From a virus (Duplodnaviria > Heunggongvirae > Uroviricota > Caudoviricetes): a stretch of 5,224 nucleotides of DNA. The translations under genes and the position numbers were made by a program. The DNA is taken from IMG/VR virus record IMGVR_UViG_3300029476_000065. One strand, written 5' to 3'. Below, in pieces: positions 4,108-4,207 of the stretch. Position 1 is the stretch's first letter; every line of letters begins with the position of its first letter. The notes beneath the pieces are model-generated. The model searched no databases. It worked only from the letters and a program-made list of their open reading frames with translations, and was not told the DNA's origin.

Positions 4108-4207
4108 CACCACAATGTTGAGAACACTGGTTGTCACGCTGCAACGCAACATTTATTCATAGATTGGGATATGACCCCGTTACGCCAGTGTTCTCAACGT
4201 TGTAGTG
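4108..4207. repeat. Long imperfect inverted repeat (19-23 bp arms, 54-bp spacer)
   Basis: Arm 4112-4130 (ACAATGTTGAGAACACTGG) is the reverse complement of 4185-4203 with a single mismatch that would be a G-U pair in RNA. Pairing extends with two further mismatches to 4108/4207. Confidence 0.7.

Follow-up and report, generated by a model that had tools for sequence, protein, structure and literature searches.

A conserved hairpin between two tRNAs in the ban-operon transcript of P1-like phages, a probable substrate of host RNase III

Processing stalks, the Qin dicBF operon and the ban-operon leader

In rRNA-operon processing stalks and at RNase III sites of polycistronic T7 and lambda transcripts, the sequences on either side of an RNA segment pair into a long helix, which RNase III cuts to separate the modules of the transcript. 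The hairpin described here, termed H3, likewise forms a long helix around an RNA segment inside a multi-gene, tRNA-containing transcript; it differs in having no sequence homology to these sites and in that the segment enclosed by members of its family is just 30-100 nt long and interchangeable.

[quoted passage not shown] 1990; Ragunathan et al. 2023). In this operon, the 190-nt DicF RNA depends on RNase III, which generates its 5' end (bioRxiv 10.1101/2023.04.14.536235, citing Faubladier 1990). The 3' end of the 72-nt DicF, near position 5454 of the Qin locus used here (L133; dicF at 5383-5435), is also made by RNase III (PMC5069750), and an RNA-seq survey reports an RNase III site at 1649470 between dicF and dicB (PMC5371410 supplement). 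Further described relatives are STnc100 and its relative PasD, prophage sRNAs linked to TerB homologues and tRNAs (bioRxiv 10.64898/2026.05.13.724894; PMC12370729). They occur in the same neighbourhoods as the elements described here, i.e. with TerB/TciA homologues and tRNAs in temperate phages, and the domain following the hairpin has their GGUGAAU...GGAGGCACC...CACC core architecture. The long hairpin itself gives no STnc100 match (RF02076, gathering threshold 47 bits; a search at E<=10 still had no match on 4108-4207). In 933W, whose genuine STnc100 scores 207.7 bits, no long hairpin precedes the sRNA.

The stretch of DNA analysed (the window; 5,224 nt) shares 97.6% identity with phage D6, shows homology to P1 and P7 and represents the tRNA/tci section of the ban operon, controlled by C1, in a D6/P1/P7-like plasmid prophage. 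It contains lpa- and pacA-like genes, tciA/B/C and a tRNA cluster, the long leader of the ban operon; the minus strand carries every credible gene and all five tRNAs (Asn, Tyr, Thr, Ser, Met). The order on the RNA is a terminator region annotated as 'dicF-like' in P1, tRNAs, hairpins, tciABC, a tRNA and ban. H3 (4108-4207) has tRNA-Thr (4432-4507(-)) as its upstream and tRNA-Ser (3891-3977(-)) as its downstream neighbour in the transcript, both identified by ARAGORN and Rfam. No promoter-like site was found in 3600-5224, and the sole terminator in this interval, 5162-5145(-), lies upstream of H3 in the transcript; with all genes on the minus strand, H3 therefore lies within a polycistronic RNA, flanked by tRNA-Thr and tRNA-Ser. 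A stand-alone structured sRNA, one of three options offered by a first-pass annotation made from the sequence, is unlikely here because neither a promoter nor a terminator is present around H3, and no intrinsic terminator with a GC-rich stem and U tract was called at the hairpin.

The Qin hairpin is homologous to H3. A covariance model of the hairpin family (R1, described below) matches the ydfC-dicF spacer at 5168-5269, this match being weak (19.4 bits, E ~1e-3 over 10 kb), and RNAfold forms the hairpin (5173-5193/5239-5258) in the family register with a stem of ~20 bp, CAUAAC-G-CGAAAGCGCAUGG / CCGUGCGCUUCCG-GUUGUGG, in which the U.G wobble is kept. Both hairpins belong to the untranslated portion of a prophage operon under repressor control that has an STnc100-like leader as well; unlike H3, the Qin hairpin has another interior, no adjacent tRNAs and a 3' arm without GGUGAAU after it. 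Subtracting 190 nt from the end of dicF at 5435 places the 5' end of the longer DicF RNA near 5246, inside the 3' arm (5239-5258), a position obtained by length arithmetic and uncertain by a few nucleotides; a promoter scan for dicBp, intended to convert the published 813/814 cleavage coordinate, returned nothing usable. The RNase III-made 3' end near 5454 falls into the 5' strand of a 14-bp closing stem (assigned by eye; 3' strand at ~5575-5590) of the STnc100-like dicB leader, which is closely similar and homologous to the tciA leader of the window. Cleavage by RNase III has been demonstrated at the Qin site, while in the phage of the window we infer it. Judged from sequence, the hairpin and the STnc100-like leader constitute the real similarity to the dicBF operon, not the 'dicF-like' region of P1, and they link the non-coding leader of the P1/D6 ban operon to this well-studied operon. 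The region labelled 'dicF-like' (P1 locus 4309-4410; window 5128-5224(-)) holds the intrinsic terminator 5162-5145, and the Rfam DicF model gave no match there in P1 or in the window.

The hairpin, its family and its strand

A repeat search of the window recovered the arms of H3 at 4108-4130 and 4185-4207, each 23 nt long and complementary at 21/23 positions (91%), with a spacer of 54 nt, the same 100-bp inverted repeat that had been seen at first pass. With 19-nt arms, at most one mismatch and a spacer of at most 120 nt, one such inverted repeat is present in the window and none in 150 shuffles, the analytic chance expectation being 1.3e-4 per window. On the RNA, H3 consists of a 5' arm (CACUACAACGUUGAGAACACUGG; 4185-4207(-)), a 54-nt interior (4131-4184(-)) predicted to form two small stem-loops and containing the motif AACGGGGUCAUAUCCCAAUCUA, which recurs in PY54 and other hairpins, and a 3' arm (CCAGUGUUCUCAACAUUGUGGUG; 4108-4130(-)), the last 9 nt of which double as the start of the next domain. 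The minus strand folds with -47.5 kcal/mol (z -5.44; 0/200 shuffles as good), the plus strand with -41.5 kcal/mol (z -3.98), and this fold together with the family covariation reported below bears out the proposal of an RNA hairpin. The stem comprises 23 stacked positions with 21 Watson-Crick pairs, i.e. 22 standard pairs including one wobble on either strand. At the first of the two non-Watson-Crick positions, the window and P1 have G-U on the plus strand and C.A on the transcribed minus strand, where D6 and P7 form a regular C-G pair; the second is U.G on the minus strand and A.C on the plus strand. The first-pass annotation had reported a single mismatch in the 19-bp core becoming G-U in RNA, which is true for the plus strand, whereas the transcribed strand has C.A at this position and a second irregularity is present.

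A segment of the H3 interior, AACGGGGU (4167-4181), is complementary to ACCCCGUU (4239-4253) in the preceding domain (15 nt, 80%), so an alternative pairing competing with the small apical hairpin is possible.

H3 is one of five long hairpins in the window, all with strongly negative z-scores, the further copies having been overlooked at first pass, as was the larger repeated unit to which H3 belongs. H1 (2598-2650(-); R1 54.7 bits) has a short interior, H2 (3790-3886(-); 57.3 bits) begins just past tRNA-Ser, H4 (4343-4430(-); 64.4 bits) begins 2 nt past tRNA-Thr and has an interior with the tRNA T-arm-like sequence GGGUUCGAAUCCC, and H5 (4869-4965(-); 47.6 bits) completes the set. Repeat analysis found the left arm plus flank (CGCATTCACCRCAAYGGTAAGRGCACT) four times and the right arm (..CCCTTACCTGTTGTG) three times in the window. 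On the transcribed strand, the family stem reads 5'-CACAAC(A)GGUAAGAGCAUUG...CAGUGCUCUUAYCGUUGUG-3', is ~19-23 bp long and carries interchangeable interiors. Scanning IMG/VR with the left-arm pattern yielded at least 120 loci, and the family there amounts to at least 158 instances, representing at least 63 unique hairpins with at least 19 interior classes on one stem; among the listed matches the interiors span ~30-100 nt and are unrelated between classes, while the stem is shared.

We aligned 21 representatives on the tRNA-sense strand with the 19-bp stem imposed. Over the 19 pairs, 93.5% of the cells are paired compared to 32-63% in slid controls, 11/19 pairs show double-sided, i.e. compensatory, changes, and the covariation score is 0.324 versus 0.175 for shuffled alignments (0/500). 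The U.G wobble, which would be A.C on the plus strand, is kept in 18/21 sequences. Wobble-type transition mismatches number 124 on the minus and 54 on the plus strand in the unique hairpins listed, which are not phylogenetically independent, and tRNAs near any family member always lie on the RNA-sense strand of the hairpin, i.e. the strand that gives the wobbles. The conserved strand-specific wobble and the compensatory changes indicate that the fold is selected, and on the minus strand; H3 is a real, selected RNA structure.

The covariance model R1 agrees with this strand assignment, returning five minus-strand matches in the window (47.6-76.5 bits) and plus-strand matches of just 15-34 bits at four of these loci, with none at H1. 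H3 is matched at 4098-4210(-) with 76.5 bits (E 4e-16) compared to 34.4 bits on the plus strand, the H3 of the window having been part of the R1 seed. The H3 orthologues of P1, P7 and D6 score 71-75 bits; none of them was in the seed, which did include a 99%-identical IMG/VR orthologue (c2_L012). The plus-strand G-U pair, taken at first pass as an argument for an RNA hairpin, concerns the wrong strand: it would favour the plus strand and was dropped as decisive for the strand given that family wobbles, tRNA orientation and R1 scores all favour the minus strand. Further members of R1 were found in the lambdoid phages mEp460 and 1720a-02, the P22-like Tyrion, the Klebsiella phage KlebP_265, the Edwardsiella phage EPP-1 and the N15-like Yersinia phage PY54, in which the H3 interior motif AACGGGUUCAUAUCCCAAUCUA is retained and the stem is rebuilt by several compensatory changes. 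H3 shows individual deviations from the family. Following CAAC, the window and P1 have a C.A mismatch as the irregularity, D6 and P7 a perfect pair; at the wobble position of GCAUUG/CAGUGC, the window has C-G and several IMG/VR orthologues have U.G; and the family-typical bulged A is missing.

Rfam holds no family for the hairpin. At permissive thresholds, Rfam gave just meaningless microRNA-precursor matches on it; the AgvB, AsxR, DicF, YrlA and C4 models did not match, ARAGORN and cmscan called no tRNA at 4108-4207 (the five tRNAs of the window all lie elsewhere), and in the literature on P1 plp/upl and 'dicF-like' we found no description of these hairpins. R1 applied to the early region of HK022 (22000-32000), following the idea of a put-like antiterminator, found nothing (best 11.1 bits, E 0.74). 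The hairpins thus constitute an uncurated structured RNA family widespread in temperate enterobacterial phages, with relatives in phages of Escherichia, Klebsiella, Enterobacter, Edwardsiella and Yersinia.

The bacterial Y RNA-like YrlA shares with the family a long closing stem with an irregularity, and some interiors (H4 and one IMG/VR member) are T-arm-like; unlike YrlA, no hairpin has an Rfam YrlA match, most interiors are not tRNA-like and no Rsr/Ro context is evident, so the likeness is a resemblance only. H4 encloses what looks like a tRNA remnant, with a D-arm-like GCGA..UCGC and the T-arm GGGUUCGAAUCCC, uncalled by ARAGORN and Rfam. The IMG/VR member L023 (2436-2542) contains a mini tRNA-like fold with a perfect T-arm.

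Proposed RNase III processing and the second conserved domain

We consider H3, a stem-loop of ~100 nt on the minus strand of the ban-operon transcript and a member of a conserved phage hairpin family, to be most probably a substrate of host RNase III. This proposal of the family as processing stalks is put forward because the Qin relative coincides, by length arithmetic, with an RNase III-made 5' end and because H3 offers 23 bp compared to the ~22 bp of dsRNA accommodated by RNase III (PMC6212723); its 23 stacked positions provide the helix of about two turns (~20-22 bp) that the enzyme requires. According to this model, host RNase III would recognise the near-perfect 23-bp helix, and a cut in the stem would separate the tRNA-Thr side from the tRNA-Ser side of the precursor, leaving short trailers behind the tRNA CCA ends to be trimmed by exonucleases and releasing the interior as a small capped hairpin. 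H4 and H2 begin 1-3 nt past tRNA-Thr and tRNA-Ser; H3 and its paralogues would act as stalks dividing tRNA, sRNA and mRNA modules. If the stems are RNase III sites, they set the maturation of phage tRNAs, of STnc100/PasD-type sRNAs and of the tci and ban mRNAs, and the interchangeable interiors would represent a pool of small phage RNAs so far overlooked. Among the three options raised at first pass, an RNase processing or stability element for the tRNA/tci transcript fits best.

Several observations argue against this reading. The stem sequence is conserved across many interiors, beyond the known needs of RNase III, and another specific ligand or recombination may conserve it; the cargo interiors may have a role as well. 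H3 itself lacks the bulged A and, in the window, the family-typical U.G wobble, and its C.A in the window and P1 would be a G.U on the plus strand; the Qin member is a weak match with a cleavage position derived from length arithmetic; and P1 plaque formation was unaffected by CRISPRi of the region (PMC10695390).

Downstream of H3, a second conserved domain at 3982-4116(-) comprises GUGGUGAAU, the hairpin GCGCAGGCUGAUGCGC, a variable middle, the hairpin CCGGAGAUCAGCACCGG and then UCGCCACAAU, and stops 5 nt short of tRNA-Ser. The last nine bases of every 3' arm (GUUGUGGUG) lead into AAUGCG... as the start of this domain, so that the pattern GGUGAAU...CACCACAAC is fed by the 3' arm of each hairpin; H3 shares the family's continuation into GGUGAAUGCG..., the window reading GUGGUGAAUGCGCAGGCUGAUGCGC at 4116-4089(-). 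The first hairpin, GCGCA-GGCUGA-UGCGC, occurs in three compensatory variants, the second, CCGG-AGAUCAGCA-CCGG, covaries, and the domain end CACCACAAC can pair with GUUGUGGUG as a closing stem that covaries as well (GUGAUG with CAUCAC). The middle exists in at least ten unrelated versions. STnc100, a prophage sRNA, has a core related to this domain, a variant of which is the STnc100 core of Rfam. The tciA leader (3661-3781(-)), a close homologue of the dicF-dicB spacer of Qin, is an STnc100-core-like domain scoring 39.4 bits with RF02076, below the gathering score of 47.

Hardly any variation is seen in the loops GGCUGA and AGAUCAGCA, and five of their nucleotides are complementary (GCUGA/UCAGC), making a loop-loop pseudoknot between GGCUGA and UCAGC possible; clean covariation for it was not found, the sole apparent compensating variant having failed inspection. 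Domains resembling the tciA leader were noticed by eye at 2490-2615, 4200-4342 and 4680-4868.

The direct run of the 3' arm into a domain with conserved ends, compensatory changes and exchangeable middles suggests an alternative, which we regard as possible and rather less than likely: the hairpin would be the variable 5' module of a composite non-coding RNA, joined to the GGUGAAU...CACCACAAC domain as a STnc100/PasD relative, its stem serving as the scaffold of a variable loop with a role in trans or in binding a factor. Processing would then be secondary, and the idea is compatible with RNase III cleavage. Besides the relation of the domain to a known sRNA and the conservation of the H3 interior motif in the distant PY54, it is favoured by lambdoid contexts, in which an intrinsic terminator follows the composite as in an sRNA gene; the second domain of H3 is 97% identical to DNA of the early-left region of mEp460, where such a terminator comes next. 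Parts of the composite (3978-4212) are present in 1108/5426 complete E. coli genomes, i.e. about one fifth, at 720 chromosomal and 541 plasmid places and annotated at none of these, the hairpin itself being mostly confined to P1-like plasmids. Against it, a function or target is known for none of these RNAs, not even STnc100, the composite has no promoter or terminator of its own in the window, and H3 is found joined to three different downstream domains, from which we conclude that hairpin and second domain are separable.

In mEp460, the order on the RNA at 2841-3208(-), beside the repressor gene, is a family hairpin, the second domain, the intrinsic terminator, a second family hairpin and the first gene. 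The 'hypothetical proteins' F853_gp36 and gp37 on its plus strand overlap these RNA elements.

A broader and speculative proposal, to which we give a low probability, is that hairpins and domains are modular phage RNA cassettes, in which RNase III-cleavable stems and closing helices (CACNACAAY/GUUGUGGUG) would carry interchangeable cargo of 30-100 nt, some of it tRNA-like. The cargo would be released from early prophage transcripts to act in trans, e.g. as decoys or regulators in phage-host or phage-phage conflict, and be swapped by recombination at the same junctions.

Module shuffling and the plp annotation

The interval between tRNA-Thr and tRNA-Ser (3978-4431 in the window) varies among closely related P1-like contigs (L039, L040, L057 and L069 compared to the window). 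It holds an H4 unit plus an H3 unit in the window, the H4 unit alone or the H3 unit alone directly past tRNA-Thr in other versions, and H3 joined to two other second domains in further ones. Whole units are present, absent or swapped among otherwise identical contigs, with the 9-nt motif CACNACAAY at the junctions; one hairpin of P1 is chimeric, and SJ46 has lost DNA between repeated interior segments. Homology also breaks in or at the arms, mEp460 spanning just the left arm plus flank and SJ46 just the right half. These findings would suit an element acting at the DNA level, in which the arms are recombination linkers or cassette junctions shuffling tRNA/sRNA modules, including a MITE-like or attC-like hairpin. 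We consider this improbable, since the orientation always follows transcription, the copies are diverged and never near-identical, sharing the stem alone with unrelated interiors, and the strand-specific wobble and compensatory changes point to a single folded strand as the target of selection. Conserved stems are expected to recombine as a by-product; this explains the shuffling, which could be mistaken for mobility. The miniature inverted-repeat element considered at first pass, a MITE or transposon remnant, is unlikely: inverted repeats are present, but the H3 flanks GCGCATT|...|CCGGTTA are not direct repeats, i.e. there is no target-site duplication, and dispersed near-identical copies are missing. 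An integron attC site does not match either, since the arm ends CCACAAT/CCACAAC and GTTGTAG/GTTGTGG misfit the attC core RYYYAAC/GTTRRRY, the stem is continuous with no unpaired central spacer, and the window contains no transposase or integron integrase ORF.

The records of P1, RCS47 and JL22 annotate plp, a putative lipoprotein gene on the plus strand, over the H3 DNA, and a 96-aa plus-strand ORF does exist at 4171-4461; that H3 is part of this protein-coding gene is nonetheless very improbable, and Plp was rejected as a real protein. The ORF looks spurious because it runs antisense through H4 into tRNA-Thr, its product is Cys-rich and of low complexity without a Pfam match, D6 and P7 carry no plp annotation, P7 has 19 gap positions across the region and the CRISPRi knock-down of the plp region in P1 left plaque formation unaffected (PMC10695390); covarying RNA structures on the opposite strand account for the DNA. 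The statement at first pass that no ORF of any size with an RBS lies inside the element has to be qualified, since short ORFs overlap it and P1 annotates a CDS there. Likely, plp and probably also upl are mis-annotations of structured-RNA DNA, which accounts for a piece of P1-family DNA listed over twenty years as a questionable lipoprotein gene.

In P1, upl and plp together occupy 3160-3729 of the locus, corresponding to ~3890-4461 (+) of the window, on the strand opposite to the operon, over hairpins and antisense to tRNA-Thr. Neither has a significant Pfam match, and the annotations of D6 and P7 list neither of them.

In the window, a run of 41 N (810-850; masked or unresolved) interrupts the minus-strand region that separates the lpa-like gene from the upstream ORF. 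The tRNA-Tyr of the window (4512-4598) is absent from D6, P1 and P7. The D6 RefSeq record NC_050154 (locus 3414-5180) places the tRNAs on the plus strand of the locus and omits tRNA-Met; ARAGORN finds all four tRNAs of the D6 locus on the minus strand, in the same sense as tci and ban.
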